From Trichodesmium erythraeum IMS101 (lineage in GTDB: Bacteria > Cyanobacteriota > Cyanobacteriia > Cyanobacteriales > Microcoleaceae), in assembly GCF_000014265.1 (NCBI RefSeq), contig NC_008312.1, forward strand, positions 5,850,001-5,882,000: DNA of 32,000 nucleotides, given 5' to 3'. Below, one piece after another: positions 5,306 to 30,100 of this stretch. A program made the translations under genes and the position numbers. Every line of letters starts with the position of its first letter. Position 1 is the stretch's first letter. The notes beneath the pieces are model-generated. The model was not told the DNA's origin. It saw only the letters and a list, made by a program, of their open reading frames with translations, and made no database searches.

Positions 5306-5339
5306 ATTAGCTTTTTGTTGATCGAAATAAGTTTTTTAT

Positions 5340-6146: not shown

Positions 6147-6286
6147 ATAAAATAGAATGATAAACTTCATAAGTATGAAAAGTAAATAAATTTTTTTTTC
6201 CTTAAATAAAGATTTTCAGATTGTACAATTGAGGATAAAATTTTAGAAGTTGCCCATACCTACTATAGTCTATAATTTTTATCAAT

Positions 6287-7933
6287 ATGCTCAAAAATAT
6301 AAACCAAAAACTAATAATTTTTATTGGGTTTCTTCTATTATCATTCTTTCTCAGATTTTGGACTTTATTTGTATCTGTGTTAGACAAAGATGAAAGTATT
6401 TATATATTAGGAGCAGATAGTTTATTAAATGGTAATCTCCCCTATACAGAAATTTGGGATAATAAACCTCCTGGTATTTTTATATTGTTTTCCCTAGCAA
6501 TGCTAATTTTTGATAGGTCTATAGTATCAATCAGAATTATATCTATTCTGGCTACAACTTTTACCAGCTATTTTTTATATAGAATTGGGGCAACGATTGA
6601 TCAAAAGCAAGGAGAAAAGATAGGATTATTAGCAGGTGTTTTATATGCTATTTTTTCTTTACATAATGATGGTGCTGCTGCCAATGCAGAAATTTTCTTT
6701 GCTCCTTTTGTTACAGTAGGATTTTTATTGTTATTTCGGAATAGACAATTATCAAATATTAAAGTATTTATGATAGGTCTAATTTTTGGGATAGGGATGC
6801 AAATTAAATATTTGGTGATTATGGATACCTTGGCATTGGTTTTATTAGGGACTTGGTTTAGGAAAGAAAGAAAAATAAAAGAAAAGGAAAAAGAAGGGCT
6901 TATAAAAAAATTGAATTCCACATTAAAGTTTTATCTAATTTTCGGTATAGGCTTAATTTTACCTGCAATTTTTATTGCATTTATTTATCAATTTTATGGG
7001 TATTTTGATGAATATATCTATGCAACTATAAGTGCTAATAGTAAGTATGTAGCGATGTTAGATTTTTCTTTTTCAGACCTTTTAAGTAGACTCAGAAAAC
7101 AGGTATTAGGAAATATTTTGTTATGGTTATGTTTGTTCTGGAGTCCGATTTATTTTTTTGTATTTGCTAGGGGTAAGTTTAAACAAGAGCGCAATTTAAT
7201 CTATTTATTTTTGTGGTTTAGCTGTGCTTTTTTGGCAGTTTTGTTATCTAAGCGATTTTATAATCATTACTTTTTACAATTATTACCTCCATTATGTTTA
7301 ATTAGTGGATATATCATTATTAAATCTGTTTTTTTACCTCAAAATCTGGTAAATGAACATCATTATGGAGAAGCAATAAAAATGAAAAAAAATAGTACTC
7401 AAGCTCAAATAAATGCTTTGATTAATTACCAATTAAATGTAATTATCCGCCCTTATTTAGCTAATATATTTTTGTTCTTTATTTTGATATATCCTTTTGC
7501 TCAAGCTGGTTACAATAAGTTAAGTAAGAATTGGGAATTTATCTATTATCGATACATTCAAAAAATAGATACGTGGGATGACAGAGAAGCTTTGATTGCT
7601 AAATATTTGAGACAAAGAATAAAATCAAATGATTATATATATGTAGTTAATTATGAACCCATAATTTATTATTTAGTGCCCACAAAAGTTCCGACAAAAT
7701 ATGCTTTTCCTAGTCATTTAACAGCTATGCATCAGATTTTGCCTACTAATTATCTACAAGAATTAGATAACATTATGGCGAAAAATCCTAGTTATATTTT
7801 ACTTGCGGAAAAAGATAATATTAGCCCTGAATATAGAAATGCTCTCAATCAATATTTAGAGGCAAGTTTTTTTCTGGAAACTACAATTAAAAATGTAAAA
7901 TTATATCGGATAAATGTAAGTAGCAGTGATTAA
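6287..7933 (+). CDS. Membrane glycosyltransferase, GT39/ArnT (PMT_2)-like (548 aa)
   Basis: About 10 hydrophobic segments are present. The first loop has an Asp/Glu motif (DKDESIYILGADSLLNGNLPY...WDNKPPG) typical of lipid-linked-sugar-dependent GT-C enzymes. The C-terminal domain is soluble. Confidence 0.75.
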   Translation: MLKNINQKLIIFIGFLLLSFFLRFWTLFVSVLDKDESIYILGADSLLNGNLPYTEIWDNKPPGIFILFSLAMLIFDRSIVSIRIISILATTFTSYFLYRIGATIDQKQGEKIGLLAGVLYAIFSLHNDGAAANAEIFFAPFVTVGFLLLFRNRQLSNIKVFMIGLIFGIGMQIKYLVIMDTLALVLLGTWFRKERKIKEKEKEGLIKKLNSTLKFYLIFGIGLILPAIFIAFIYQFYGYFDEYIYATISANSKYVAMLDFSFSDLLSRLRKQVLGNILLWLCLFWSPIYFFVFARGKFKQERNLIYLFLWFSCAFLAVLLSKRFYNHYFLQLLPPLCLISGYIIIKSVFLPQNLVNEHHYGEAIKMKKNSTQAQINALINYQLNVIIRPYLANIFLFFILIYPFAQAGYNKLSKNWEFIYYRYIQKIDTWDDREALIAKYLRQRIKSNDYIYVVNYEPIIYYLVPTKVPTKYAFPSHLTAMHQILPTNYLQELDNIMAKNPSYILLAEKDNISPEYRNALNQYLEASFFLETTIKNVKLYRINVSSSD

Positions 7934-14749: not shown

Positions 14750-15617
14750 GGACTTATGCAAAGACAATGTATATAGTTCATGATAATTATTGAATTTATG
14801 GTGACTCTACAATTATTGTCTAGTCTTTCCGGAAAACAAAGCAAAAGTTTTGTAGAGTATAGATTTGACTAGATGGAATTGGATTTACCGGTACCTGGCT
14901 ATGGCACTGTAATATCCGATCGCTTGGCAAAACTGAATGTTCAAGTGCAATTTTACAAAATTAATGAACCCCTTCATTTAGTAGTAAATTATACAAGAGT
15001 GAAAGTTTATGGGGGAAGACCAAGGAAGACAAGAGTTCATGGTGTCAGTAAACGGCGTACATGGCGTAAATTACATCTGGGAGGGTAGGAAACCATGTGG
15101 GAGCGAGGTAGTGGGGTCGTGAATACTAATGATATAAGTGATGACCAAGTATTTTCTGAGCTGTTAGGTGGACTAGATGGATAAATAGCCTAAGTATTAG
15201 GAGACGGTCCATAAGAAAAGTATAAGTGTTAGGAAAAAGCTAGGTGACCAGGAGCAAAAGCAACAGTTCCACCAAATACAAATGAGGTAATAAGTCAACT
15301 AGGTAATTAAAGCCTACCTGATCCCAGAGATGAAAGCCTACCTCAGCAGAATCAGAAAAGTAGGACCCCGGAAATGGAAACGTAAAGCTACCATCGACCT
15401 TCCCTATATGAAACTAATTATGTTTAGGCTCAAAGTGATATTTGGAGAGAAGTTACGAAGACTCAAATTTGATGCTCAGGCAGTGGAGTTATCCATACAA
15501 TGTGCCATGATAAACCTTATGATTCGAATAGGTAAACCTAAAAGCTATATGGGTTGAAATCTAGCTAATTTCGAGTCAAGGGGTTGGCTGAAAACCCAAA
15601 TTTCATGCAACAAGGCC
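14750..15617 (+). mobile_element. Decayed IS5-family insertion sequence (IS903-like group), internally deleted
   Basis: The right end, reverse-complemented, reads GGCCTTGTTGCATGAAAT and resembles the IS903 terminal repeat GGCTTTGTTGAATAAATC. A weaker left-end match, GGACTTATGCAAAG, starts at 14750. The interior encodes broken transposase fragments. I saw no target-site duplication, and the left boundary is uncertain. Confidence 0.6.
14873..15557 (+). pseudogene. IS903-like DDE transposase pseudogene (multiple stops and frameshifts)
   Basis: Fragment 14873-15088 (LVVNYTRVKVYGG...HGVSKRRTWRKLHLGG) parallels IS903 IDSTGLKVFGEGEW..HG..RRR.WRKLHLAVD. Fragment 15330-15557 (WKRKATIDLPYMKLIMFRLKVIFGEKL...AQAVELSIQCAMINLM) parallels its C-terminal WKW..YNRRSIAETAMYRVKQLFGG. 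Several stops and frame changes lie between the two fragments. Confidence 0.75.
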
Positions 15618-15821: not shown

Positions 15822-16112
15822 ATGGCCAGTGACAAGAAGAAAGCAAAGTCAGTGACTGTCTTGCGTAGTGATAGTGACTTTGGTGGTAGTCCAGATAAAA
15901 TATCTGGTGGAAAGAGCAAGAAGAAAAAGAAAAAACAGTCTCTAGGAATGGTAGAGAAGCCGATCTTTAATCTTGCTAAGCAATTTGATAAAGTAACTAC
16001 TACATACCGGGACTCTCACGAAAATTCTAATTCCAAGAAAAGGGATGGTTGGATTAAAGATTTGCCTAAAAATACTACAAAGGCTCTAGGTAAATTTAAA
16101 ATTCCATTCTAA
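15822..16112 (+). CDS. Small Lys-rich basic protein of unknown function (96 aa)
   Basis: An AAGGAG Shine-Dalgarno sequence lies 8 nt upstream of the ATG, and a candidate promoter lies further upstream. The product has a KSKKKKKKQ tract and a C-terminal motif SKKRDGWIKDLPKN. I cannot confirm any homolog. Confidence 0.55.
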   Translation: MASDKKKAKSVTVLRSDSDFGGSPDKISGGKSKKKKKKQSLGMVEKPIFNLAKQFDKVTTTYRDSHENSNSKKRDGWIKDLPKNTTKALGKFKIPF

Positions 16113-16215: not shown

Positions 16216-16517
16216 GATAAATAACTATACTGCTCGAGTAGTATTAGTAAAATAAAAACTTGAAATAATAAGAACTGTATATCTTATTTTATTATCTCCT
16301 ATACACTATATTTATGTATGGAGTGCTTGATATAAATAAGATATTTTTACTGAAATCAGTGACTTTGATAAATAACTATGCTGCTCGAGTAGTATTAGTA
16401 AAGTAAAAACTTGAAATAACAAGAACTGTATATCTTATTGTATTAGCTCCTGTACACTATATTTATGTATGGAGTGCTTCATATAAGTAAGATATTTGTA
16501 CTAAAATCAGTGACTTT
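16216..16517. repeat. Tandem direct repeat, 2 x 151 bp, about 93% identical
   Basis: Copy 1 (16216-16366) and copy 2 (16367-16517) align without gaps and differ by 10 substitutions by my count. No long ORF is present. Confidence 0.9.
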
Positions 16518-16842
16518 GCTTAAGTCATGTTATGGTCTTAATCTTAGGTTGGTATAATTTCAAGTGTTTTAAAAGCTTTATTTATAAGTTGCATAAGAAA
16601 TTGTGATTGATATTATCTTGCGTGTTAGTTATTTTATCCCTTGATAATGTTACACTCAGTATAGCAATCAGAGAAGAAAGAAAAAACCTATAAGTCTAAG
16701 TACTACAATTTAAGTAAATTGTTTATTTATCTTGTAGTTAACTGCTAAAGTATTAAGTAAAAAAATACTAAAATCGAAATCAAGAATTTAGTATAAAAAT
16801 TCAACTGCAATCTCTAAAAATATTTTAAAAATATTTTGATAT

Positions 16843-16993
16843 AGGGCAAACGCATCTGATAGGTCTACTGTAGTTAATTATCAATAGACTACTGTTAACT
16901 GTACTAACTGTACTAGTTGACTATATCCCAATATATATGTATATAGTGTTTAGCATTATGTGACAAACACTCTATGTTGGATGCGTTTGCTCT
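16843..16993. repeat. Inverted-repeat-bounded ~150-bp element (MITE-like or long-range RNA stem)
   Basis: Arms AGGGCAAACGCATC (16843-16856) and GATGCGTTTGCTCT (16980-16993) share an 11-bp perfect core. They enclose 123 nt containing internal direct repeats (taactgtac x2) and sub-hairpins. Confidence 0.7.
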
Positions 16994-17043
16994 TTCCTGT
17001 TATGCTACTTCCAGAGTAGATTTTGGAATAGGTAGTATTTAAC

Positions 17044-17358
17044 TAAAAAATTTGATGAGGAGAAATCAAAAATGGTAATGTCAGGAGAAAGAATAGGTAT
17101 GGATCAAAACGCAAATACTATTATTATGACAATGTCAGCAGACAGCGACGATATTAAGGATCTGCGTCGTGGTGAAGGTAAGTTATTCAAGAAAATAAAG
17201 TATCAAATAGAAGAAATCAAAAATGATTCTTCTGAAGTGGATGAAAAAATACAACCTATAATTGTCATTTTCAAACAGAAATAGAGAAGGAGGATTATTA
17301 GGTTAAGAAATTAAGATTCAGAGTAGTTGTTAACCAAGAGTAATTCGGAAAATCTACT
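17044..17358 (+). repeat. Small-protein cassette copy A (conserved 5' leader + 70-aa ORF + conserved 3' block)
   Basis: It shares with copy B the leader TAAAAAATTTGATGAGGAGAAA. It also shares the 3' blocks ATTAGGTT, AGTAGTTGTTAAC and AGTAAnTCGGAAnAnCTACT. Confidence 0.8.
17072..17284 (+). CDS. Small hypothetical protein, paralog A (70 aa)
   Basis: A GAGGAG Shine-Dalgarno sequence lies 9 nt upstream. The product is roughly 40-45% identical to the ORF at 17650 by hand alignment. Shared features are NTII, a GxGK(L/V)F motif and a QPI-hydrophobic-K-rich C-terminus. Confidence 0.6.
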   Translation: MVMSGERIGMDQNANTIIMTMSADSDDIKDLRRGEGKLFKKIKYQIEEIKNDSSEVDEKIQPIIVIFKQK

Positions 17359-17621
17359 AAAAAAAAAAGACTCCTTTTAATCTTGCTTCAAGTTTTGGAG
17401 AGTTCATTCCTTGATTCAGTAACGCCAAAGAATCAACAAAAAGTCAAATCTTCTATAGGTGAGGACTACAAAAAATGTGCCTAGTTACTAAAAAAATTAG
17501 TTGAAAGCATTGCCTAAGAATGGTCGCTTTGAATTAACTATTTTAGTAAATATGTTAGTCCGCGGAGGGCATTCATATCCGAAATTAGAGTTTCGATTGT
17601 GAATCAGTGATAGCATTCAAT

Positions 17622-17927
17622 TAAAAATTTTGATGAGGAGAAAGAAAACATGGTAAAATCTCAAGAAACTGCAGTCCAAGAAGCGAACACCATTATTCTT
17701 GAACTTTCAGGAGATAAGGACGACTATAGTGAATTGATTAAAGGAAAAGGCAAGGTATTTGACAAACTGAGGCGAACAATTACCAAACTTAAAGATCAAG
17801 GTGAAATTTTAGAAGATGCACAACCTATATGTGTGGTAGTTAAAAAGAAAAGATAAAGATGATTAGGTTGATTAATAGATTGAGATTTACAGTAGTTGTT
17901 AACTCATAGTAACTCGGAACAGCTACT
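17622..17927 (+). repeat. Small-protein cassette copy B
   Basis: This is the second copy of the cassette described at 17044, offset by 578 bp. The roughly 260 bp between the two copies is not repeated. Confidence 0.8.
17650..17856 (+). CDS. Small hypothetical protein, paralog B (68 aa)
   Basis: A GAGGAG Shine-Dalgarno sequence lies 9 nt upstream. It is a paralog of 17072-17284 (ANTIILELSGD..GKGKVFDKL...AQPICVVVKKKR). Confidence 0.65.
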   Translation: MVKSQETAVQEANTIILELSGDKDDYSELIKGKGKVFDKLRRTITKLKDQGEILEDAQPICVVVKKKR

Positions 17928-17939
17928 TAGAAAGAAAGA

Positions 17940-17961
17940 ATACCCTTTTTTTTAAGGGTAT
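17940..17961 (+). terminator. Perfect 8-bp hairpin ATACCCTT-TTTTTT-AAGGGTAT after cassette B
   Basis: The palindrome was read directly from the sequence. The T-run sits in the loop rather than after the stem, so terminator function is uncertain. Confidence 0.35.
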
Positions 17962-18026
17962 CTAAAATAACTCAAACAAAAAATAAATCAAGCACCTCAG
18001 ATAAACAAGGAATTGAAATATACCAA

Positions 18027-19220
18027 GTGAAGATACTATTAGTCTGTACAGAAAAATTACCAGTACCTTGTATACGAGGTGGAGCTATTCAAACATATAT
18101 AGATGGTATTTTACCTTACCTAAAACGAGAGCATGAAATTACAGTGTTCTCAGTGGCAGATCCAGAACTACCAGATAGGGAAACTAGAGAAAATATTCGC
18201 TATGAACGTGCCGGTAGAGAAAGTTCTGAGGAATACTATCAAGCTGTAGCAAATTTTGTAGCAAATAGACAATTTGATTGGATAGTAATATATAATCGCC
18301 CTAAATATTTACCTATAGTGGCTAAGGCTGCCCCAAGTAGTCGCTTTCTACTGAGTATGCACAACGAAATGTTCCATGATAAAAAGATTGAACCTGAAGT
18401 TGCAACTGTATGTTTGGAGCGAGTAGAAAAAGTAGTCACAGTGAGTAAATTTATTGCTAATGGTATTTGCGAGTTATTTCCAGAATATAAACATAAGCTA
18501 CAACCTGTATATGCGGGAGTAGACCTGAAACGCTTTCAGCCTAAGTGGACAAAATTAGGAGAAGAAAAACGAAAAGAAATTTTGGCAGCTCATGGTTTAG
18601 AAGGTAAACAAGTAATCCTTTGTGTGGGTAGGTTAACAAATAAAAAAGGACCACATCTGTTAATACCTGCGATCACTAAAGTAATCAAAAAACACCCATC
18701 TGCTGTATTATTGTTAGTAGGTAGTAAATGGTATGGTAACAATAATGAAAATGATTATGTCCGTGAAATTAAAACGGAGGCAGAAAAGTTGGGAGCAGCA
18801 GTTCAGATGACAGGTTTTATTTCACCATCTGAAATTGCGGATTACTTTCTGTTAGGTGATATATTTATATGTGCATCTCAGTGGGAAGAACCTCTAGCTA
18901 GGGTACATTACGAGGCTATGGCAACTGGACTATGTACGATTACTACTGCCAGGGGGGGAAACCCTGAAGTAATTGTTCCAGGTAAAAATGGTATTGTAAT
19001 TACAGACTACGAAAACCCTGATGCCTTTGCTACTCAGATAGACTACTTATTGTCGAGACCAGAGGAGAGTGAAGAGATGGGAAGAACAGGACGCGAGCTA
19101 GCTGAATTACATTACAGTTGGTCAAGGGTAGCTTGGGATATTTTGAGTATTATTAATGACTCAAAATCAACGTCTTTAGAGAAAATGGGGTTAATAGAGC
19201 AAGCTCAGGAAGCTGGATAA
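18027..19220 (+). CDS. GT4-family (group 1) glycosyltransferase (397 aa, GTG start)
   Basis: The C-terminal Glycos_transf_1 signature is present: GRLTNKKGPHLL, and EEPLARVHYEAMATGLCTITTARGGNPEVIVPGKNGIV with the E-x7-E motif. The N-terminal half is GT-B-like. Confidence 0.85.
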   Translation: MKILLVCTEKLPVPCIRGGAIQTYIDGILPYLKREHEITVFSVADPELPDRETRENIRYERAGRESSEEYYQAVANFVANRQFDWIVIYNRPKYLPIVAKAAPSSRFLLSMHNEMFHDKKIEPEVATVCLERVEKVVTVSKFIANGICELFPEYKHKLQPVYAGVDLKRFQPKWTKLGEEKRKEILAAHGLEGKQVILCVGRLTNKKGPHLLIPAITKVIKKHPSAVLLLVGSKWYGNNNENDYVREIKTEAEKLGAAVQMTGFISPSEIADYFLLGDIFICASQWEEPLARVHYEAMATGLCTITTARGGNPEVIVPGKNGIVITDYENPDAFATQIDYLLSRPEESEEMGRTGRELAELHYSWSRVAWDILSIINDSKSTSLEKMGLIEQAQEAG

Positions 19221-19315
19221 ATTGAAGCTGATTTTTTCCAGACTAAGGCTCAGATCAGTAAAGATTATAAATCAAGACCTAAAACGTAGGAAAATGAAAT
19301 ATTTGAGTTGATTCT

Positions 19316-22300
19316 ATGAAACAACAACAAAAGAGGGAATTAGTAGCTATTATTGGCATGGCATGTCGATTTCCAGGAGCAAATGACTATGGTCAGTTCT
19401 GGAAAAATATGGAAGCTGGAGTAAATAGTATAAGTGAAATACCCTCCCAAAGGTGGGAAGCAGAAAAGTATTATGCTCCTATTCCTAATCAACAAAATAA
19501 GACGATAAGTAAATGGGCAGGGTTGATAGAAGGAATAGATGAGTTTGATGCCGAGTTTTTTAGTATCTCTCCTAGAGAAGCAAGAAAGGTAGATCCACAA
19601 CAGAGAGTTATATTGGAATTGAGTTGGTCTTGTATAGAAGACGCGGGTTATTCACCATCTCAGCTTTCAGGAAAAGATGTAGGTGTTTTTATGGGTGCTT
19701 GTAATTATGACTCTATTCTCTTGATGAACCGAAATCAAGAAAATATAGAAGGTCATAGTGGAACAGGAACCTGGACTTGTATGATTCCCAACCGTATCTC
19801 TTCATTTTTTAACTGGCACGGTCCAAGTATTCCTATAGATACAGCTTGTTCAAGCTCACTGGTAGCTATTCATTATGCACTTAAATCTCTCAAAGAATCA
19901 GAGTGTGAAATGGCATTGGTAGGTGGTATAAGTGTGTTATTCACCTCAACAACATACATCCAGATGAGTCAACTAGGGATGTTGTCGCCAACAGGACAAT
20001 GTAGAACATTTAGCAGCGATGCCAATGGTTATGTGAGGGGAGAAGGAGCTGGAGTAGTTTTATTAAAACCTCTAACAAAAGCTATAGTAGATGGCGATCA
20101 TATTTATGGTGTAATTCAAGGGAGTGCAATTAATCACGGAGGAAAAGCTAGAACTATAACATCTCCTAATGTCTACGCCCAAGCTAAAGTAATTCGTTCA
20201 GCCTACATTAACGCTAATATTTCTCCGGATACAGTATCTTATATAGAATCTCATGGAACAGGCACACCATTAGGAGACCCAATAGAAATTAATGCTTTGA
20301 AAAGAGCCTACAAGCAACTTGCTCAGCAGTATGGAGTCGAAAAAACAGAGAAACCCTACTGTGGTATAGGAGCAGTTAAAAGTAATATAGGACATTTAGA
20401 AGGAGCTGCTGGAATTGCTGGATTAATCAAAGTATTATTAGCAATGAAGTATAAAAAGCTCCCCAAAATTCTCAACTTCAAGGAATTGAATCCACGCATT
20501 AAGATTAAAGATACTCCTTTCTATATCATAGAGGAAAATCAAGAGTGGAAACGATTAAAAAATGAGTTAGGAGAAGAGATTCCCAGACGTGCAGGTTTAA
20601 GTTCTTTTGGTATTGGGGGCGTTAATGCTCATATTGTATTGGAAGAACCTCTAGAAGAAGTAAAAATTAATTTAAGTGATACTTTAGAGCGTCCACAAGA
20701 GATTTTAACTCTCTCAGCGAAGACAGAGAAAGCACTGAGAGAATTAGCCACAAAATATCAAACTTATTTACAATTAGACAGTGAAGCATCGCTATCAGAT
20801 ATATGCTTCAGCGCTAATAAAGGTCAGACACATTTTACAAAAAGATTAGCAATAGTAGCAGAGTCAAAGAGGGATTTACAGCAAAAATTAGCAGGTTTTC
20901 TCCAGGATAATGCGACTCAGGGAGTATTTACAGGAAATTCAGACACTCAGACGATAGCTTTTCTCTTTACTGGTCAAGGTTCCCAATATGCTGAAATGGG
21001 AAGGCAGTTATACGATACTCAACCTACTTTTAAGAAAATTATTGACCAGTGCAGTAAAATTCTGGAAAAATATCTAGAAGTTTCTTTACTAGATGTACTT
21101 TATCCTAATCTCACTATAAAAAAGGAAGAGGTTTCATCTTTAATAGACCAAACAGCTTATACCCAACCTGCTATATTTGTAATAGAATACGCTCTAGCTA
21201 AATTATGGGAATCTTGGGGAATTAAACCAGATGTAGTTATGGGTCACAGTGTTGGTGAATATGTAGCAGCAACAGTAGCAGGTATTTTTAGTTTAGAAGA
21301 TGGTCTCAAACTGATTGCAGCAAGGGGACGGTTAATGCAACAGTTACCCGCAGGTGGAGAAATGGTAGCTGTGATGGCATCAGAAGCAAAAGTGAAAAAG
21401 CTCCTCAGACCTTATGCAGAAAAAGTAGCCATCGCAGCAATAAACGGACCAAAAAGTGTAGTTATTTCTGGTGAGGCGACAGCAGTCAGGGAAATTGTCA
21501 GCAGTTTAGAGTCAGAAAAAATTAAAACTAAACAATTACAGGTATCTCACGCCTTCCATTCACCATTGATGGAACCAATGTTGGCGGAATGGGAAGCAGT
21601 AGCTAAGGAACTAACTTATCATCAACCAGAGATTCCAGTGATATCTAACGTCACGGGAACAATAGCAGATAAAAGCATCACAACAGCCAAATATTGGGTA
21701 GATCATGTACGTCTACCAGTCAGGTTTACTGAAGGTATGGATGCTTTACAGAAACAGGGCGTTGAAATTTTCTTAGAAGTCGGACCGAAACCAATATTGT
21801 TGGGTATGGGTCGCCGATGTCTGCCTAAAGATGTAGGTGTTTGGTTACCATCATTGCGTCTGGGAGTAGATGAGTGGCAACAGATGTTATCAAGTTTAGG
21901 GGAGTTGTATGTACAAGGAGCGAAAGTAGATTGGTCAGGGTTTGACTCCGACTATAGTCGTCAGAAAGTAGCATTACCCACATATCCATTCCAACGAGAA
22001 CGTTATTGGGTAGAAGAAAATGGATATGGGAAAAAGTTATTAAGTAAACAGCAAACAGTAAAGGAACTTCATCCATTATTAGGTTACAAAATAAATATTG
22101 CAGGTCAACAGCAGATATTTGAATCATTCTTGGGAGCAGAAAAACCAGAATATCTGAAAGACCACAGGGTATTTGACGAACCTCTATTCCCGACAACAGG
22201 ATACCTAGAAATAGCCCTAGCAGCCGGGCAAAACCAGTATAAAACCTCTTGGATAGAAGTAGAAGACCTGAGGATAGAAAAAGGCTTAGTATTACTAGAG

Positions 22301-25300
22301 GGAGAGGTAGAAACAGTTCAGACTATACTAACTCCCCAAGAAAATCAAACCTATCAATTCCAAATATTTTCTCAAGAGCAACAGGGAGGAACTCAACAAT
22401 GGGTACTCCATGTAGCCGGAAAAATACAGCAGGCAGCACAACAAGTAGAAGAAGAAAAATTAGATATAGAGAAATATTTAGGAGAGTGTGATCGCTCCAT
22501 AGAAATCAAACAACACTATCAACGTTGTCAGTCCATGGGAATTAGCTATGGTTCAAGCTTCCAAGGGATAAAACAACTGTGGAAAGGAGAAAATCAGGCA
22601 TTAGCCAAACTCGCTATCCCAGAAGCACTAGCAGGAGAAATGGGGGAATATAACATACATCCAGTTATATTAGATGCAGCACTGCAAGTAATATTCAATG
22701 CACTGCCAGAAGCAGAAAACGAAAATCAAACCACATATCTGCCAGTAGGTGTAGAAAAATTAACAACCTACAGCAGCCCAGAGGAGTCAATGTATGCTTA
22801 CGGAGTGGTAGATGGAACAGGTGGAGGAAATTGGAAAGCAAACGTCATCCTCAGCACCGAAACAGGAAAGATAGTTGGGAAAATATCAGGGTTACGAGTA
22901 AAAGCAGCAAGTAAAGAAGCCTTACTAGGAAGCAAACAAGAAACAATTAAAGACTTGCTGTATGAAATAGAATGGAGAAGCAAAGGTCGCTTGGGAAGAC
23001 TACTACCACCAGATTATTTGCTGGCACCAACAAAAATAGAACAGCAACTACAACCAACCATAAGAGAATTAATAGCTCAGGCGAATCTAGAAAGCTATCA
23101 AGAAATACCAGGAAAATTAGAAGAGTTAAGCCTGGAGTATGTACTCCAAGCAATTAAGGAACTGGGGTGGTATTACAAAGTAGGAGATAAGTTGAACAGT
23201 GAACAGGAAATAGAACGGCTAAGTATAGTACCAAGTCAAAAACAACTATTCAAGCGAATGCTACAAATGTTAGGAGAAGCAGGAATAATTGAGCCAGTTG
23301 TTGGTACAGATGAGTGGAATGTAGTGCAAACATTAGACAACAGTGAAGAACAAGGGCCGAAAAAAGGTGAAAAATTCCTGAGTGAGTATCCCCAAGCAGC
23401 AGCAGAGCTAACACTATTAAACCGTTGTGGCACGGAACTAAGTGGAGTATTGCAAGGAGCAACAGACCCAGTAGAGTTAGTGTTTCCATCAGGAGATTTG
23501 ACTGCGGCTACCAGGGTATATCAAGACTCCACCCTCGCTAAATTTATGAACTCCTTAGTAGAAAAAACTATTGCTACAGCAATTGAGAAGTTACCAAAGG
23601 ATCAAGGGATAAGGTTATTAGAAATAGGAGCAGGAACAGGAGGAACGACCAGTTATATTTTACCGACTCTACCAGAAACTAATACAGAGTATGTATTTAC
23701 AGACTTGGGAGTCTTATTTACTACAAAAGCCAAAGAAAGATTCCAGGATTATCCTTATGTAGAATATCGGACATTAGATATAGAAGTAGACCCGACAACT
23801 CAAGGCTATAATGCTCATCAATATGATGTGATTATTGCAGCTAACGTCCTTCATGCAACAACTAATATCAAGGAAATACTGTCTAATGTGCGAAAACTCC
23901 TAGCACCAGGTGGGATATTAGTATTATTTGAAATTACAAGCCGTCAACGATGGCTAGATTTAGTATTCGGACTATTGGAAGGATGGTGGAGATTTGAAGA
24001 TCTAGACATACGACCAGACTATCCATTACTGAGTCGCTCTCAGTGGCAAGAGGTATTGATGGGAACAGGGTTTACAGAAGTAGCCACCTTGCCAGAAGTA
24101 GAAGGAATGCCACAGGTATTATCTCAGCAATCTGTTATTATTGCTCAAGCAGACTCAACGGCCTCAGTACCAGATGCAAAGGGTTGGTTGATCCTAGCAG
24201 ATAAACAAGGAATTGGCCAACACTTAGCAAGACAACTGGAGTCTTTTGGAGGTGTTTGTACTGTAGTATTTGCTGGTGAGAAATATCAACAAATCACTCC
24301 AGAAGAGTTTACTATTAATCCTGATCGCCCAGAAGACTACGAGCAACTGATGACAGCAGTGGTAGATAAGTCACCGGCATTGTCTGGAGTTGTGCAATGC
24401 TGGACAACAGAATTTGCAGCCACAAAAGAAATAAAAGATTTATCTCGATGGGGATGCGGAACAACATTATTTTTAGTGCAAGCCTTACTTAAAAGTCGAT
24501 TACAGCGATTGCCACAGTTATGGTTAGTTACTTCAGGATCTCAACCAGTACCGTTAAATAGTCCTTTGATTCCTGGAGTCAGTCATTCTTCCCTATGGGG
24601 AATGGGGAAAGTTATTAACTTAGAACATCCAGAACTCAATTGTGTTCGTATAGATTTAGACCCAGAAGCAACTGTCGAGAGTAATGCCAACCTACTATTT
24701 AATGAAATCTGGTCAGAGGATAAAGAAGACCAAGTAGCATTACGGGAGAATTCACGCTATGTAGCTCGATTAGTAGCCAGTCATCATCAGCGAGTAGCAA
24801 CAGGGGGACTGACAATACCATCACAACCATATAAACTCGGCATATCAGAAAAAAGCAGTTTAGACAAGCTTATTTTAGAGCCGATTAACAGAAATGCTCC
24901 AGCAGCAGGGGAAGTAGAAATTCAAGTCATGGCAACAGGACTGAATTTCCTAGATTTGGTAGCAACATTAGGATTAGTACCAGATGAAGTAGACGGCGTG
25001 TCTCAAAAACACCTGGTAGATATCAATAGATTTGGGGTAGAATGTAGTGGTTATGTAGTTGCAGTGGGAGAAGGAGTCAAAGGATTAGAAGTAGGAGATA
25101 TGGCGATCGCTATGGCTCAGGGTAGCTTCAGCCAATATGTCACAGTCAATGCTAGTTATGTAGTGCCGAAGCCAGAAAATATAACTTTTGAAGAAGCAGC
25201 ATCAATACCAGCTAACTTCTTAACTGCTTATTATGCCTTACATCACATTGCCAAGATTACTAAAGGCCAACGTATCCTGATTCATGCAGCAGCCGGGGGT

Positions 25301-26971
25301 ACAGGTATGGCAGCCGTGCAAATAGCTCAAAAAGCAGGTGCAGAAGTTTTTGCGACAGCAAGTCCTCCTAAATGGGAAACTCTACGGAAAATGGGAGTCA
25401 AATATATTATGAACTCCCGGACTGTGGAGTTTGCCGACCAGGTAATGGAATTTACCGAAGGGCAAGGGGTGGATATAGTGCTGAACTCCCTAACTTCAGG
25501 AGATTTTGTCAGGAAAGGTTTATCAGTAGTCAGTCCTCAAGGTAGGTTTATAGAAATAGCCAAGCGGGGGGTATGGAAATCTAGCCAAGTAGCAGAAGTA
25601 AGGCCAGATATATCCTATTCTATAGTAGATTTGCTGCGAAAGTCTCAGGAAGAACCAGAATTAATCAATTCCATGTTGCAGGAGTTAACAGCAGATTTCT
25701 CCAATAGCTTACTCAAACCAACACCATTAAAAGTATTCCCCATAGAGGAAGTCATCAGTGCCTTCCGTTATATGCAGCAAGCTAAACATATAGGAAAAAT
25801 TGTCGTTACTCAGCCAAAACAACCAGACAAACCAGTAAGTTTCCGTGGTGATGCTGCATACTTAATTACAGGAGGTATGGGCGGTTTAGGCTTACTAATA
25901 TCTCGTTGGATGGTGTCCAAAGGAGCTAAACACTTAGTTTTACTGGGGCGTCGGGCACCGAATGAGGTAGTCAAAGAAAAACTGGTCGAATTGGAAGCAG
26001 CAGGGGCATCAGTGACAGTAGAAACATTAGATGTGTCAGACTGGGAAGGGATGAAAGGAGTGATAGAGAGGATTAATAACTCAGGCACACCATTAGCAGG
26101 GGTAATGCACTCAGTGGGTGTATTATCAGATGGGGTGCTAGAAAATCAAACCTGGTCAAGTTTTGAGCAAGTCATGGCTCCCAAAGTTCAGGGTAGTTGG
26201 TATCTACACCAGTTGACTCAAAATCAATCCTTAGACTTTTTCCTTGTGTTCTCTTCAGTAGCATCTTTATTTGGTTCCTCTGCTCAGGCAAATCATTCAG
26301 CAGCTAACGCTTTTCTGGATGGTTTAGCTCACTATCGTCGCTCTCTAGGATTACCAGGATTAAGTATTCATTGGAGTACTATTTCCCAAGTGGGAGAGGC
26401 AGCAGAAAGAGGTGCTGATGTGAGGTTGCAAAAACAGGGTATAGCTGCTTTGACTCCCACTGAGGTATTAGAATCTCTAGAAGTGTTAATGAGTAGTAAC
26501 GCTAACACTGAGGTAGCAGTAGTAGATATTGATTGGTCAAAGTGGCAAGAAAGAGCATCCCAATGGAGGTTTTTAGCAGATTGGGAGGGAGTTGTTGCGG
26601 GAGTTATAGGCACAGAAACTAGGCTTTTAGAACAACTAAAAGAATCCTCATCAGAGGAGCAAGAAAAAATGTTAGTGGATTACCTCAAAGGTAAAGTAGC
26701 TAATATTTTTGGCACAACAACTGGCAAAATCATGGATATAGAGCAACCATTAACTACTATGGGACTTGACTCTTTGATGGCAGTTGAGCTACGGAATCTC
26801 ATCCAAAGGGAATTGGGATTTGATATACCTATGCAAACAATAATTGAAGGTATTAGTATTTCGGAAATAGTCGATCTAGTATCTGAGCAGCTATTGTTAG
26901 AACAAGTTAGTTACTCAAATACTTCACCAACTGAAGAAATCGATGAAGATATGGAGGAAATTACTCTATGA
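19316..26971 (+). CDS. Type I modular polyketide synthase, one module: KS-AT-DH-cMT-ER-KR-ACP (2551 aa)
   Basis: All domain signature motifs were read in order (see the domain entries). The stop codon overlaps the next start codon (ATGA at 26968-26971). Confidence 0.97.
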   Translation: MKQQQKRELVAIIGMACRFPGANDYGQFWKNMEAGVNSISEIPSQRWEAEKYYAPIPNQQNKTISKWAGLIEGIDEFDAEFFSISPREARKVDPQQRVILELSWSCIEDAGYSPSQLSGKDVGVFMGACNYDSILLMNRNQENIEGHSGTGTWTCMIPNRISSFFNWHGPSIPIDTACSSSLVAIHYALKSLKESECEMALVGGISVLFTSTTYIQMSQLGMLSPTGQCRTFSSDANGYVRGEGAGVVLLKPLTKAIVDGDHIYGVIQGSAINHGGKARTITSPNVYAQAKVIRSAYINANISPDTVSYIESHGTGTPLGDPIEINALKRAYKQLAQQYGVEKTEKPYCGIGAVKSNIGHLEGAAGIAGLIKVLLAMKYKKLPKILNFKELNPRIKIKDTPFYIIEENQEWKRLKNELGEEIPRRAGLSSFGIGGVNAHIVLEEPLEEVKINLSDTLERPQEILTLSAKTEKALRELATKYQTYLQLDSEASLSDICFSANKGQTHFTKRLAIVAESKRDLQQKLAGFLQDNATQGVFTGNSDTQTIAFLFTGQGSQYAEMGRQLYDTQPTFKKIIDQCSKILEKYLEVSLLDVLYPNLTIKKEEVSSLIDQTAYTQPAIFVIEYALAKLWESWGIKPDVVMGHSVGEYVAATVAGIFSLEDGLKLIAARGRLMQQLPAGGEMVAVMASEAKVKKLLRPYAEKVAIAAINGPKSVVISGEATAVREIVSSLESEKIKTKQLQVSHAFHSPLMEPMLAEWEAVAKELTYHQPEIPVISNVTGTIADKSITTAKYWVDHVRLPVRFTEGMDALQKQGVEIFLEVGPKPILLGMGRRCLPKDVGVWLPSLRLGVDEWQQMLSSLGELYVQGAKVDWSGFDSDYSRQKVALPTYPFQRERYWVEENGYGKKLLSKQQTVKELHPLLGYKINIAGQQQIFESFLGAEKPEYLKDHRVFDEPLFPTTGYLEIALAAGQNQYKTSWIEVEDLRIEKGLVLLEGEVETVQTILTPQENQTYQFQIFSQEQQGGTQQWVLHVAGKIQQAAQQVEEEKLDIEKYLGECDRSIEIKQHYQRCQSMGISYGSSFQGIKQLWKGENQALAKLAIPEALAGEMGEYNIHPVILDAALQVIFNALPEAENENQTTYLPVGVEKLTTYSSPEESMYAYGVVDGTGGGNWKANVILSTETGKIVGKISGLRVKAASKEALLGSKQETIKDLLYEIEWRSKGRLGRLLPPDYLLAPTKIEQQLQPTIRELIAQANLESYQEIPGKLEELSLEYVLQAIKELGWYYKVGDKLNSEQEIERLSIVPSQKQLFKRMLQMLGEAGIIEPVVGTDEWNVVQTLDNSEEQGPKKGEKFLSEYPQAAAELTLLNRCGTELSGVLQGATDPVELVFPSGDLTAATRVYQDSTLAKFMNSLVEKTIATAIEKLPKDQGIRLLEIGAGTGGTTSYILPTLPETNTEYVFTDLGVLFTTKAKERFQDYPYVEYRTLDIEVDPTTQGYNAHQYDVIIAANVLHATTNIKEILSNVRKLLAPGGILVLFEITSRQRWLDLVFGLLEGWWRFEDLDIRPDYPLLSRSQWQEVLMGTGFTEVATLPEVEGMPQVLSQQSVIIAQADSTASVPDAKGWLILADKQGIGQHLARQLESFGGVCTVVFAGEKYQQITPEEFTINPDRPEDYEQLMTAVVDKSPALSGVVQCWTTEFAATKEIKDLSRWGCGTTLFLVQALLKSRLQRLPQLWLVTSGSQPVPLNSPLIPGVSHSSLWGMGKVINLEHPELNCVRIDLDPEATVESNANLLFNEIWSEDKEDQVALRENSRYVARLVASHHQRVATGGLTIPSQPYKLGISEKSSLDKLILEPINRNAPAAGEVEIQVMATGLNFLDLVATLGLVPDEVDGVSQKHLVDINRFGVECSGYVVAVGEGVKGLEVGDMAIAMAQGSFSQYVTVNASYVVPKPENITFEEAASIPANFLTAYYALHHIAKITKGQRILIHAAAGGTGMAAVQIAQKAGAEVFATASPPKWETLRKMGVKYIMNSRTVEFADQVMEFTEGQGVDIVLNSLTSGDFVRKGLSVVSPQGRFIEIAKRGVWKSSQVAEVRPDISYSIVDLLRKSQEEPELINSMLQELTADFSNSLLKPTPLKVFPIEEVISAFRYMQQAKHIGKIVVTQPKQPDKPVSFRGDAAYLITGGMGGLGLLISRWMVSKGAKHLVLLGRRAPNEVVKEKLVELEAAGASVTVETLDVSDWEGMKGVIERINNSGTPLAGVMHSVGVLSDGVLENQTWSSFEQVMAPKVQGSWYLHQLTQNQSLDFFLVFSSVASLFGSSAQANHSAANAFLDGLAHYRRSLGLPGLSIHWSTISQVGEAAERGADVRLQKQGIAALTPTEVLESLEVLMSSNANTEVAVVDIDWSKWQERASQWRFLADWEGVVAGVIGTETRLLEQLKESSSEEQEKMLVDYLKGKVANIFGTTTGKIMDIEQPLTTMGLDSLMAVELRNLIQRELGFDIPMQTIIEGISISEIVDLVSEQLLLEQVSYSNTSPTEEIDEDMEEITL
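19337..20650 (+). other. PKS ketosynthase (KS) domain
   Basis: Motifs present are VAIIGMACRFPGA, the active-site DTACSSS (Cys178), HGTGT (His313) and NIGHLEGAAG (His360). Confidence 0.9.
20954..21865 (+). other. PKS acyltransferase (AT) domain, predicted malonyl-specific
   Basis: Motifs present are FLFTGQGSQY, GHSVGE (Ser645) and HAFH (aa 745-748). HAFH is the classical malonyl-CoA signature, as opposed to YASH. Confidence 0.85.
22067..22915 (+). other. PKS dehydratase (DH) domain
   Basis: HPLLG is present, followed by LKDHRVFDEPLFP. This is the HxxxGxxxxP motif with Asp in place of the usual Gly. GISYGSSFQG and LDAALQ are also present. Confidence 0.8.
23468..24115 (+). other. PKS C-methyltransferase (cMT) domain
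   Basis: The SAM motif I LLEIGAGTGGTT is present, along with DVIIAANVLHAT and LLAPGGILVLFE. The domain lies between DH and ER, as in other cMT-containing modules. Confidence 0.8.
24827..25810 (+). other. PKS enoylreductase (ER) domain
   Basis: The domain has MDR-type features: GEVEIQVMATGLNFLDL and the NADPH loop LIHAAAGGTGMAAVQIAQ. Confidence 0.85.
25847..26395 (+). other. PKS ketoreductase (KR) catalytic subdomain, with catalytic Tyr position occupied by His
   Basis: The Rossmann motif YLITGGMGGLGL and Lys (APKVQG) are present. SSVASLFGSSAQANHSAANAFLD occupies the position where the canonical sequence is ...GQANYAAAN.... The His codon CAT is at 26294-26296. Confidence 0.8.
26657..26890 (+). 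other. Acyl carrier protein (ACP) domain followed by an acidic C-terminal docking tail
   Basis: The phosphopantetheine site is in LTTMGLDSLMAVELRN (Ser2486). The tail reads EEIDEDMEEITL. Confidence 0.85.
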
Positions 26972-27123
26972 AACTGACCCAAATTCTGTCTCAAATCTCT
27001 AGCCAAGGCATTAAATTATGGGCTGAAGGTGATGAGTTAAAAATCCGCGCTCCCAAGGGGACACTAACAGCAGAAATTCGTGATTTATTATCCCAAAATA
27101 AACTCGAATTACTCCAGTTACTT
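26968..27123 (+). other. TubC_N-like N-terminal docking domain
   Basis: MKLTQILSQISSQGIKLWAEGDELKIRAPKGTLTAEIRDLLSQNKLELLQLL matches the recalled pattern of NRPS N-terminal docking domains (L..L...G..LW.EG..L....P.G.L). Confidence 0.7.
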
Positions 27124-30100
27124 CAGCAAAAGAGTAGTAATATTAGTGCCACATCTGTGCCTTTAGTTCCTGTTGGTAGGGATAAAGATTTGCCAGTTAC
27201 TTATCAACAGGAGCGTCTCTGGACTATAGATCAGTTAATGGGAAATAAGCTGAATCTCAATGTTTCTACAGCCCTAAGAATTGAAGGTTTAATAGATGTC
27301 CAACTACTACAAAAAAGTTGGAATGAAATGATGAGTCGTCATGAAACTTTGAGGACTACTTTTAGTTTTGCTGAAGGGTCATTAATTCAAGTGGTTCTTC
27401 CTAGTTTAGATTCTGAGATTTCAGTAGTAGATTATCAAGGTTTAAGTAAGACTGAGCAAGCAAGTGTAATTCAAGAGGCTATTGAACAGGAAGCCCAACA
27501 ATATTTTGATTTATCTGAAGGCCCACTGTTAAACGTAAAACTTTTCAGATGTAGCGAGCGAGAAGGAGTATTGCTATTAGTATCTCATCATATTATTAGT
27601 GATGGTTTATCTCACAATTTTTTATTTCGCGAACATATACTTTTGTATGATTCTTATCTGAGTAAAAAACCATCTCCTTTAGAAGAATTAGATATTCAAT
27701 ATGGAGATTATTCTGTTTGGCAGCGACAGTGGCTACAAGGAGAGGTGTTACAAAAGGGAATAGATTTTTGGAAAAAAGAACTGGCAGATATTTCTACTTT
27801 ATATCCAGTACCATCTGATATTTTTCAAGTATCTCCAGGCTTTAAAGCTATTAAGAAGACTTTTTCAATACCCAATAATATATTGTCTTTAGTGCAAAAG
27901 GTAAGTAATCAATATAGTGTTACTCCTGTAGTTATTTTCCTTTCAGTGTTTTATGTATTGATATTTCAATACTCTCTAAAACAGGATATTGTTGTTGGTC
28001 TCCCAGTTTCGGGAAGGTTACATCATAAACTACAATCTGCCGTTGGTTACTTTACTGATACTATCCTATTACGAGCCAAAATATCTGATAATTTTATTAC
28101 ATTTAAAGAATTACTTAACAAAGTTAAAGAAATTACCATTAAAGCTTATGCCAACCAACATATTCCTCTCAACTTTGTAGCAGAATTCCTGAATCAGCAA
28201 AACAATCAACAATATAGAAATTTATTTCAGATTTTCTTTGACTATATTGACTTTGGAGGAGAAGATAAGATCGAATATCCTAATTTGACAGGAACTTCAA
28301 TAGAGGAAAAGTTCCCTTCAGATATAGATTTGTTCTTTCTTTTATTAAAATTTGAACAGGAGCTAAAAGGGTCTTTTAGTTACAATCCTGAATTATTTGA
28401 AGAAGAAACAATTACAGCTTTAATAGATTCCTATTTGTTGCTTCTAGAAAAAGCAATTAATGCTCCAGAGACACAAATAAATGATTTAGAAATATCAGAA
28501 AATCTGGCAAAACGTAAGACTGAGATTCACAGTCAATCAAGAAAAATAAATCTGATAGAAACTGGTTTAAAATCTATTTCTGAAGTTAAAGAGTCTGCTG
28601 TTTTGACTAGGGATAATCAACTGGTTGCTTATGTGGTTATTACCGATGATTATTCTGTAGAGAAAGTACAATCTTTCCTAGAATCTCATCTATCTTCCGA
28701 GTTTCTCACTGATGCTTATATACCTGTTTCTACTCTACCAAAAACAGAATCTGGAGAAATAGATGAAACTGCTTTAACAAGTTTAGAAGTTATTGACTCA
28801 GAATTAATTAATCGTTGGGAAGAAAAACTGCGATCGCATCCCGAAATAGAAGAAGTGGCGGTAGTTGTGCAGCGCAAACAAGCTTACCCAGTTATACCAG
28901 TAATTCAGGAAACAACAGTAGAAAAGAATGGTAAGGATAACACAAAAGACTTAAAAATTGCCGAAGAAAATATTGCAGATACTACCCCTGCTGAGGTAGA
29001 CGAGGTTGCTGCATCTGTAGAATTTGAAACTTGGGCAGATTTATTACCAGGTACAAATGAACCAGCGATATATAGCACTGACGGTCGTAAACCTCTTACT
29101 CATGCACAACTAAAAGATTTTGTACAGTCACCGCCAGACAAGGCCAGTCTCAGCTATTTGGGGATTAAAATAACTGACCGTGTATGTGCTGCTACTCCCA
29201 ATGGACCAGAAGCAGCAATAGCATTTTTGTCCTTAGCACAACAGTGTGTGTTTGCACCTATTAGCACTTCTCTGACGGAAAAGCAAGTTCAGTTTGAGTT
29301 GGAAGACCTGGGTGCAGTAGCTTTGTTATTGCAAAAGGGAGAAGCTAACAGTAGTGATAATGCAAAGTTAAAAGCTTGTGCGGAAAGTTTAGGGGTGCGG
29401 GTTATTGAGCTAATACCTGATGCTTCAGTATGTGGCTTATTTAGCTTGGAAGAAATTACTACAAATAAGGAAGAGCATCAACCAATAACAGAAGGTAATA
29501 ATAAACCTACTCGTGACCATATAGCTTTAGTGCTGCATACTAGCGGTACAACAAGAAAACCCAAGACAGTACCTTTGACTCATGGGAATTTAACAGCAGG
29601 TTCTTTAACTATTAGTCAGACTATACAACTAACTCCAGAAGATACCTGTATCAATATCATGCCTTTGTTCCACATTCACGGTCTTTCTGTTAATATTCTG
29701 GCCTCACTGTTAGCTGGTGCTAGTGTACTTTGCATGCCAGGGTTATACGCAACAGAAAAAGGAGTAAGTGATTTCTTTGAGTGGTTGAAACCGGACGAGG
29801 GAAGCGATAGAAAGAAAGTAACTTGGTATTCTGCTGTACCAACCATGCACCAAGCAATTTTGGAATATGCAGAACAAGCATTAGCGGAAACAGGTAAAGC
29901 TCCTGAACACTCTCTGCGTTTAATTCGTAACTGTTCCGCAGCACTGCTACCAGCTATTGCCGACCGGATGGCAAAAGCATTTAAATGTGAAGTATTGCCT
30001 ACCTATGCAATGACAGAATCTATGCCTATTTGTAGTCCAGAAGTAGGTAAGGGGTTACTCAAGCGTGGCTCTGTAGGTCGCGCTGCTGGTCCGAAAGTAA

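Follow-up and report, generated by a model that had tools for sequence, protein, structure and literature searches.

The stretch analyzed here is a 32,000-nucleotide piece of the genome from Trichodesmium erythraeum IMS101 (NCBI RefSeq assembly GCF_000014265.1, contig NC_008312.1, positions 5,850,001 to 5,882,000 of the forward strand; hereafter the window), in which two short open reading frames (ORFs) stand directly upstream of a biosynthetic gene cluster (BGC). ORF A (17072-17284, plus strand) is Tery_3816 and ORF B (17650-17856, plus strand) is Tery_3817; they encode DUF6200 proteins of 70 and 68 amino acids that match ABG52860 and ABG52861 exactly. Together with the preceding DUF6312 gene Tery_3815 and the following GT4 glycosyltransferase (GT) gene Tery_3818, whose products are likewise exact matches, they form a module, DUF6312-DUF6200-DUF6200-GT4, at the head of a cluster with polyketide synthase (PKS) and nonribosomal peptide synthetase (NRPS) genes. 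An earlier note, made from the letters of the window, had described the two ORFs as a duplicated cassette whose non-coding flanks are better conserved than its coding sequences, and had suggested a resemblance to a widespread uncharacterised bacterial family of about 70 residues. The ORFs lie where it had placed them, and the profile search that it recommended bore out the resemblance: against Pfam DUF6200 (PF19702; gathering cut-off 26.9 bits), ORF A scored 56.8 bits (E 1.8e-15) and ORF B 57.9 bits (E 7.9e-16). Both ORFs are clearly members of a catalogued but uncharacterised family.

Both proteins show the full family layout, which consists of an NTIIL strand, an acidic DD patch, an RRGEGK(L/V)F loop, a helix and a QPI(I/C)V strand, and both carry the family-invariant columns N15, D26, D27, L31, G36, Q61, P62, I63, V65 and K68; they depart from it in lacking an in-frame ...GLL(D/G) tail. 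An exhaustive profile search yielded 388 DUF6200 representatives at E <= 0.001, mostly of 60-120 amino acids. Some members bear Sec signal peptides (L003-L005, P0017, P0246); in others, DUF6200 is the very last, C-terminal domain of a larger protein, either a cytoplasmic class-3 lipase (at least four lineages) or a beta-trefoil (FRG1/fascin-like) protein. An AlphaFold2 model predicts a beta-alpha-alpha-beta unit (pLDDT 76), with which a fold search of the PDB gave no match below E = 1.7. A sequence-profile search of the PDB gave only 4l3u, at a marginal E of 0.048, and searches of NCBIfam, PADLOC and PHROGs returned no match for the DUF6200 proteins. A literature search found no paper mentioning DUF6200, PF19702, DUF6312 or PF19831. 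The best explanation is that both proteins are small cytoplasmic DUF6200 proteins.

The two proteins are identical at 27 of 59 positions (46%, E 3e-16 by BLASTP), close to the 40-45% estimated earlier by hand, and their coding sequences (CDS) at 57% of nucleotides, with a saturated synonymous divergence (dS) of about 1.0. The flanks are more alike than that. A repeat search recovered a 58-nucleotide 5' repeat (17033-17090 / 17611-17668) and a 68-nucleotide 3' repeat (17303-17370 / 17872-17939), each at 79% identity; similarity between the cassettes ends at about 17013-17370 and 17590-17939, and none was found beyond. The 22-nucleotide leader, which includes the Shine-Dalgarno (SD) sequence, is identical at 21 of 22 positions, and the window has exactly two copies of TTTGATGAGGAGAAA, where 0.23 would be expected with up to two mismatches allowed. 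All of the 3' strings quoted in the earlier note were found in place, namely ATTAGGTT at 17297-17304 and 17862-17869, the 13-nucleotide AGTAGTTGTTAAC at 17322-17334 and 17891-17903 (the sole exact copies in the window), and AGTAAnTCGGAAnAnCTACT at 17339-17358 and 17908-17927.

The same ranking holds across species, where homologous loci keep the flanks, so that their conservation extends beyond this one duplication. Against the homologous locus L028, identity is 83% for the 5' block of A, 84-85% for the 3' blocks and 87% for the hairpin plus GT leader, compared with 74% for the CDS of A, 69% for that of B, 77% for third codon positions of the GT gene and 34-56% for other spacers (pooled blocks vs third positions, p = 6e-4; blocks vs CDS, Fisher p = 0.001). 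Flank-limited gene conversion between A and B, which is suggested by flanks 79% identical in paralogs with a dS of about 1, predicts the opposite of what we observed, because the flanks resemble each other more closely between orthologs (83-85%) than between paralogs (65-79%). We therefore read the flanks as constrained and find such conversion hardly credible.

Both small genes are transcribed and co-regulated with the cluster. In a published comparison of high and low iron, Tery_3816-3820 had log2 fold changes of -2.31, -2.82, -2.57, -2.69 and -2.83 (all adjusted p < 1e-8), corresponding to 5-7 fold induction under iron limitation, while Tery_3815 reached only -1.03 (PMC12090762 Table S2). 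Counts per million (CPM) rose from 150-207 at high iron to 739-1003 at low iron for Tery_3816, and from 111-177 to 804-1336 for Tery_3817 (PMC12090762 Table S2). Expressed per kilobase, the low-iron values are about 3,500-6,500 CPM for Tery_3816/3817 versus about 350-565 for Tery_3818-3820 (from PMC12090762 Table S2), which is a roughly 10-fold transcript step within 170 nucleotides after ORF B. The authors discussed the PKS genes as 'cryptic' but not the small genes (PMC12090762). The primary transcript of Tery_3815, called a 'unique' hypothetical protein, was among the 20 strongest in culture (PMC4143802 Table 1), and higher protein levels under iron depletion were listed for Tery_3815 (2.6-fold), 3819, 3823, 3825 and 3826 (PMC4642986 S1). 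The cluster Tery_3815-3826 (window 18027-31329) is among the clearest responses to iron limitation at both the RNA and the protein level (PMC12090762, PMC4642986).

The conserved flanks are best explained by three separate causes, of which the first is a translation-initiation region. In cassette A, the SD sequence GAGGAG lies 9 nucleotides before the ATG with an A/U-rich tract ahead of it. When nine cassettes from seven loci were aligned, the segment from GAGTAGATTTT through the sixth codon, with the form ...GGTATTTAACTGAAAATTTTGATGAGGAGAAA-N6-ATGGTAATGTCAGGAGAAA, was nearly invariant, and the proteins in this comparison were only 46-60% identical. The 75 nucleotides before ORF A are 83% identical to L028 and show no difference from the wild relative L025, and the 35 nucleotides before the ATG of ORF B share 83-89% identity with each of the other module-1 cassettes. 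A second module lineage shares the SD and the A/U-rich leader and has the analogous sequence TAAAAATTAAGGAGAA. RNAalifold assigned the nine 5' blocks -0.55 kcal/mol, seven weak pairs and no compensatory changes, and all 5' regions folded no better than shuffled sequences. We read the 5' block as an unstructured initiation region made up of the A/U-rich tract, the SD and the first six codons, and its conservation in all cassettes of the lineage is consistent with selection for strong expression. A sigma-70-type promoter probably lies just upstream; a promoter scan flagged TTGATA-17-GAAAAT in the L028 homologue, and the same scan of the window did not flag the 5' blocks.

Two observations concern the start of ORF A. 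RefSeq entry WP_155994487.1 (61 amino acids) places it at the internal Met10 (17099 instead of 17072); we favour the 70-residue GenBank start because the SD and the first six codons are conserved. In addition, a 7-codon upstream ORF (ATG AGG AGA AAT CAA AAA TGG TAA, MRRNQKW) at 17055-17078 overlaps the SD and start codon of ORF A, with equivalents at 17633-17656 before ORF B and before most homologues. Because L006 has lost its ATG (GATCAGGAG), this upstream ORF is probably a side effect of the conserved SD and MVM start.

The second cause is coding rather than regulatory. In most DUF6200 members, a Lys-rich stretch at the C-terminus leads into GLLD, GLFD, GLLG or KDW, giving endings such as ...KKDGGLLG and ...KKGLLD, a feature that is not part of the Pfam definition. 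In the window, ORF A ends ...FKQK-stop and ORF B ends ...KKKR-stop. Directly after the TAG of ORF A, however, the +1 frame reads AGA GAA GGA GGA TTA TTA GGT TAA, and the L028 orthologue has the tail ...KQKKDGGLLG in frame. Four wild alleles (P0028, P0002, P0031 and P0036) end ...KQKGLLG, and their DNA lacks exactly the 10 nucleotides TAGAGAAGGA. The wild relative L025 reads its B allele straight through TTAGGTTGA to give ...KKKRLG-stop, and similar tail relics stand behind premature stops in the B copy of L028 and in L040. The tail is thus truncated by a stop and a frameshift in A and by a 9-nucleotide insertion in B. Because the tail is in frame in wild alleles and in L028, ATTAGGTT, which had been proposed as a regulatory block, is better understood as vestigial or population-variable coding sequence for the C-terminal GLLG. 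As a caution of method, a 'conserved non-coding block' beside a small ORF can be vestigial coding sequence.

What remains is a 3' block, a lineage-specific motif conserved in sequence and not in structure. In the window as in L028, the motif GTAGTTGTTAAC-N4-AGTAAYTCGGAA has been kept behind A as well as B. In L001, L006 and L040, which have a single DUF6200 gene, that gene is followed by a variant, GGTAGTAATAAC...GTARTTCKGAG; L007 has only the first half, and the motif is degenerate in L041. Across 37 loci and a metagenome scan, every occurrence was on the plus strand and came after a module-1 DUF6200 ORF; the scan for occurrences elsewhere returned just one contig, which was already known. 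In B, the 3' block, the following hairpin and the GT leader make up 150 nucleotides of continuous conservation (85-87% to L028) at the place where transcript abundance drops. The hairpin after B is conserved in L028, L001, L006, L007 and L040, and the GT leader (...AAATCAAGCACCTCAG-N-AAACAAGGAATTGAAATA...) is nearly invariant across genera, which suggests a regulatory element of its own. A terminator scan found no plus-strand intrinsic terminator after A or B. Module-2 homologues, by comparison, have canonical plus-strand terminators. In the least secure part of our proposal, the 3' motif would be a cis element recognised by a protein or an RNase and acting with the hairpin. The two together may set the roughly 10:1 ratio of small-gene mRNAs to the downstream GT-PKS mRNA.

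Hairpins after both cassettes can also be read as minus-strand terminators. There is no minus-strand gene nearby, and they could stop antisense RNAs that run opposite the 5' end of GT and opposite ORF B.

The earlier note had raised functional RNA in the untranslated regions (UTRs), and in particular a pairing of AGTAG with CTACT as a shared feature. We accordingly weighed whether the blocks are structured functional RNAs such as a riboswitch, a thermometer, a small RNA or a 5'-3' pairing element. The B-type copies do form a 10-bp stem with a conserved loop, the 3' region of B in L028 folds with z = -4.6, and in cassette A the 5' AGTAGATTTT (17017-17026) is the exact complement of the 3' AAAATCTACT (17350-17359). 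The AGTAG/CTACT stem is, however, confined to the two B-type copies, and neither B nor the two L028 cassettes show the 5'-3' complementarity. Other folding z-scores are mostly near 0, and the A-type 3' regions, including the degenerate hairpin after A, fold no better than shuffles. RNAalifold predicted no pairs and hence no consensus structure in the seven 3' blocks, where covariation had been suggested as a check, in addition to the lack of covariation in the nine 5' blocks. The 5'/3' local alignment score equals that of shuffles, and the octamer RAGTAGWT is not enriched. In Rfam 15, only a tRNA reaches its gathering score in the window; within 16500-18100 there was no meaningful match even at E up to 10, the best hits (E >= 0.14) being at chance level. 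A shared RNA structure is largely refuted, and we consider structured functional RNA a very unlikely account of the blocks.

For a within-species comparison, 12.3 kb of the window were set against the wild relative L025. Overall divergence was 0.73%, with 0.1% in the ChlB region, 1.0% in the GT gene, 0-1.3% in the 5' flanks and a background of 0.55%. The CDS of A and B diverged by 6.1% and 5.8%, in excess of the background (Poisson p = 4e-7 and 2.5e-5), beside 0-2.4% in the adjacent non-coding DNA; no other spot in this 12-kb stretch of wild Trichodesmium genomes is as polymorphic as the two DUF6200 genes. By the Nei-Gojobori method, A differs from L025 by one synonymous (Sd = 1) and nine nonsynonymous (Nd = 9) changes and B by Sd = 1 and Nd = 6 (Nd = 6-7 over L025 and L021), whereas four neighbouring genes jointly show Sd = 10 and Nd = 8 (Fisher p = 0.012 for the contrast). 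The ratio of nonsynonymous to synonymous rates (dN/dS), which the earlier note had proposed to calculate, is 2.05 for A and 1.62-1.90 for B within the species, against 0.28 for GT and 0 for ChlB, and the faster protein divergence that it had described is thus extreme at the population level. Against L028, the values are 1.38 for A, 0.37 for B, 0.14 for GT and 0.19 for DUF6312, and the three codon positions of ORF A are equally diverged.

The variation is not spread over the protein. Tery_3816 has at least 15 population alleles. Apart from the tail, changes are confined to alignment positions 19-22, 31-38 and 41-54; three or four different residues occur at some sites, the combinations are mosaic, and neither the first 18 nor the last 16 residues vary. 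In the AlphaFold2 model, the variable positions lie where strand 1 ends, in the RRGEGK loop and in helix 2, and variation in that loop is also present among module-2 alleles. The ORF is intact in all 15+ A alleles and in every B allele seen. We read these patterns as diversifying, or at least strongly relaxed, selection that would act on one exposed surface of the predicted fold while the core is kept. Of the two explanations offered earlier for fast coding next to slow flanks, diversifying selection on the proteins is therefore compatible with the data (dN/dS 1.6-2.0), while structured RNA is not borne out.

A known T. erythraeum system invites comparison here. Its diversity-generating retroelement (DGR) has at least 12 targets (PMC4143802), and the likeness lies in localised hypervariation of a few codons among wild alleles and in an adenine-site bias; 19 of the 22 variable sites have an adenine allele. 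Coding variation written by this DGR is as hard to credit as the flank-limited conversion discussed above. The published targets belong to the DUF323 family, with C-terminal variable repeats at the 3' end of the gene that are homologous to a template near Tery_1728 (PMC4143802). No template-like repeat of the variable patch occurs within the window, the patch is in the middle of the gene, and 3 of the 22 variable sites have no A allele. On these grounds we consider a DGR unlikely. Gene conversion from paralogs was rejected as the source of the hot spot, as no exact tract longer than 14 nucleotides is held in common with any paralog.

A rival view is that both ORFs, in a genome noted for pseudogenes and non-coding DNA, are decaying under relaxed selection and that the flanks seem conserved simply by contrast with a coding sequence that drifts neutrally. 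The dN/dS of about 1-2, the equal codon-position rates in A, the tail lost in both copies, a conserved RRGEGK residue changed in some A alleles, the lack of peptides for either gene among the PMC4642986 S1 entries searched and a genome that is 40% non-coding (PMC4143802) would all fit. Neutral drift, however, cannot make a pseudogene diverge several-fold faster than the non-coding DNA beside it (about 6% vs 0-2.4%), and this is why we favour diversifying selection. Nor does decay account for the intact alleles, for variation restricted to three short patches between invariant ends, for the 10-nucleotide deletion that restores the tail in wild alleles, or for strong, iron-regulated transcription behind 5' blocks whose SD is constrained. 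We regard decay as unlikely, though still worth serious attention. Our favoured reading, which we hold to be probable by a modest measure, is that A and B are old tandem DUF6200 paralogs, each with its own expression cassette, in which constrained expression flanks enclose fast-evolving coding regions.

Several points weigh against this reading. Tail loss together with the replaced RRGEGK-motif residue in some A alleles could mark decay, and neither Tery_3816 nor Tery_3817 was among the PMC4642986 S1 entries searched. Relaxed constraint fits the rates as well as diversifying selection does, because a dN/dS above 1 stands on Sd = 1 per gene and is not by itself significantly above neutrality. 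The 3' motif may be dispensable, because it is degenerate in L041 and different in L001, L006, L007 and L040. The hairpin 17962..17939 is a canonical intrinsic terminator on the minus strand only and has no U-tract on the plus strand. The promoter and attenuator roles are read from the sequence and from per-gene counts, and the role of the protein is guesswork from context, with no relative of known function among the structure and sequence searches.

As for that role, the genomic context points away from the BGC. A DUF6312 gene, from one to three DUF6200 genes and a GT4 gene, in this order, make up a module that we define here and that is not a published system. It recurs in Dapis and Okeania, in other Trichodesmium and in a number of metagenome contigs. 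In the window all of its genes are on the same strand, and the order is repeated in L001, L006-L008, L010-L013, L026, L028, L036 and L040; a DUF6312 gene is upstream of DUF6200 in 12 or more loci. Across genera, amino acid identity is 80-88% for GT, about 50-80% for DUF6312 and only 43-62% for DUF6200. Homology between DUF6200 and DUF6312 was not detected (hhalign probability 0.3%). A PKS comes after the module in many loci but not all. T. erythraeum has a second module (L036 / L037 7374-10746), DUF6312-DUF6200-DUF6200-GT4, with intact KKRGLFD tails and no PKS behind it, and in Roseofilum, UBA2566 and Moorena the DUF6312-DUF6200 pair adjoins an ABC1 atypical kinase. In Roseofilum, a lipase-DUF6200 fusion lies directly upstream of DUF6312-DUF6200-ABC1 kinase, and an acidobacterial contig carries DUF6312, DUF6200 and a PKS together. 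Because of the PKS-free second module and the ABC1-kinase neighbours, the small genes belong to a module of their own and are not BGC-specific accessories, and the regulatory, immunity or chaperone role that the earlier note had linked to the BGC is weakened.

The chaperone idea fails on other grounds as well. MbtH-like proteins (PF03621), the NRPS adenylation-domain partners of about 70 residues, resemble the two proteins in size and in adjoining, and being co-expressed with, an NRPS-containing cluster. There is, however, no PF03621 match at E up to 10, the conserved Trp is absent from both ORFs, and DUF6200 tracks DUF6312 and GT4, not NRPS; we rejected this identity.

The ORFs might also be precursors of ribosomally synthesized and post-translationally modified peptides (RiPPs) or of RiPP-PKS hybrids, over-expressed through an attenuator in the manner of lanA-type genes, where the terminator ahead of the enzyme genes is leaky. 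In favour of this, the ORFs are small, lie in tandem directly upstream of a co-regulated BGC, and have a strong SD, conserved UTRs, hypervariable residues and mRNA about 10-fold above the downstream genes. In DUF6200, however, the variability sits in the middle of the protein and conservation is highest at the C-terminus, the domain is predicted to fold as a beta-alpha-alpha-beta unit, and the same domain is found at the C-terminus of lipases and beta-trefoil proteins and with Sec signal peptides. Furthermore, no maturation enzyme is present among the window ORFs scanned, the neighbours being GT4, PKS and NRPS only, and the module occurs without any BGC. A precursor role is highly improbable.

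Because of the lipase and beta-trefoil fusions and the ABC1-kinase and GT4 neighbours, DUF6200 would most likely serve a system related to lipids or glycolipids, as a small, abundant adaptor or partner subunit, and not be a PKS-specific regulator or immunity protein. Taking this further, we can imagine an undescribed DUF6312-DUF6200-GT4 module of filamentous marine cyanobacteria, with relatives reaching to Acidobacteria, that is induced by iron starvation in Trichodesmium. DUF6200 would then act as a homotypic adaptor or targeting domain, bringing enzymes (class-3 lipases, for example) to some lipid or glycolipid structure. Its loop-helix surface and on/off tail would be polymorphic through diversifying selection, for example by phages, grazers or epibionts, and a dedicated regulator or RNA-processing factor would bind at the 3' motif. 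As a whole, this picture is doubtful and is offered as speculation.

Trichodesmium supplies a large share of the new nitrogen of the tropical ocean and is often iron-limited. It is not known to make siderophores. The small genes heading this iron-stress cluster have never been discussed before, and the product of the cluster is still called cryptic. A widespread module with a highly conserved GT offers experimental handles both on an uncharacterised family and on the regulation of the cluster. The features that accompany the two ORFs are collected in Table 1.

Table 1. Features around ORFs A and B and enzyme fusions of DUF6200. Coordinates are those of the window unless another locus is named.
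Feature	Position	Strand	Description
Tery_3815	15822-16112	+	DUF6312, small Lys-rich protein; Pfam PF19831, E 2e-30; exact ABG52859 match
5' block, cassette A	16997-17071	+	GAGTAGATTTTGG at 17014-17026; candidate -35/-10; A/U-rich leader 17044-17065; SD GAGGAG 17057-17062
Vestigial tail coding, A	17283-17306	+	+1 frame R-E-G-G-L-L-G-stop; contains ATTAGGTT at 17297-17304
3' block A	17308-17362	+	Motif GTAGTTGTTAAC-N4-AGTAAYTCGGAA; 84% identity to L028
A10 tract and degenerate hairpin	17359-17405	+	GACTCC...GGAGAG, decayed counterpart of the hairpin after B
5' block, cassette B	17575-17649	+	Leader 17622-17643; SD GAGGAG 17635-17640
Vestigial tail coding, B	17857-17871	+	TTAGGTTGA = L-G-stop, cut off by a 9-nucleotide insertion carrying TAA
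3' block B	17877-17931	+	Same motif as A; 10-bp stem 17891-17900 / 17918-17927 with conserved 17-nucleotide loop; 85% identity to L028
A-rich tract and hairpin	17928-17962	+	ATACCCTT-T6-AAGGGTAT; hairpin 17939-17962 well formed
GT gene leader	17963-18026	+	Conserved across genera; 87% identity to L028 together with the hairpin
Tery_3818	18027-19220	+	GT4 glycosyltransferase, GTG start; Pfam Glycos_transf_1; exact match
DUF6200 fusions (class-3 lipase / beta-trefoil)	L002 2687-4300; P0081, P0082, P0131, P0170; P0086, P0087		

Upstream of Tery_3815, the window carries ChlB, ClpS and methyltransferase genes, and beyond Tery_3817 the GT4 gene is followed by genes for a 2551-residue PKS and a 1453-residue NRPS. 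This locus is also present in assembly GCA_000963755 (T. erythraeum strain 21-75). Elsewhere, Trypco1 and trypsin-VMAP genes lie downstream of the PKS-free second module of T. erythraeum, and at L027 4286-4654 (minus strand) an ORF beside a DUF6200 pair contains four tandem DUF6312 N-terminal motifs, (V/I)VLKSExDFGG.

The spacer between Tery_3815 and Tery_3816 has features of its own. A scan for Fur boxes gave a best site of 14/19 at 16942, within a Trichodesmium-specific insertion and not above the window background, and no fitting NtcA or HLR1-type motif was found by eye. The insertion, a 155-nucleotide segment (16841-16995) between 14-nucleotide inverted repeats (16843-16856 / 16980-16993), resembles a miniature inverted-repeat transposable element because it is wholly missing from the homologous L028 spacer. 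The same spacer contains a tandem pair of a 151-nucleotide unit at 16216-16518, with 93% identity between the copies. Finally, a short ORF at 14873-15088, between the methyltransferase gene and Tery_3815, has weak similarity to DDE_Tnp_1_5 and is a transposase remnant that most strains have.

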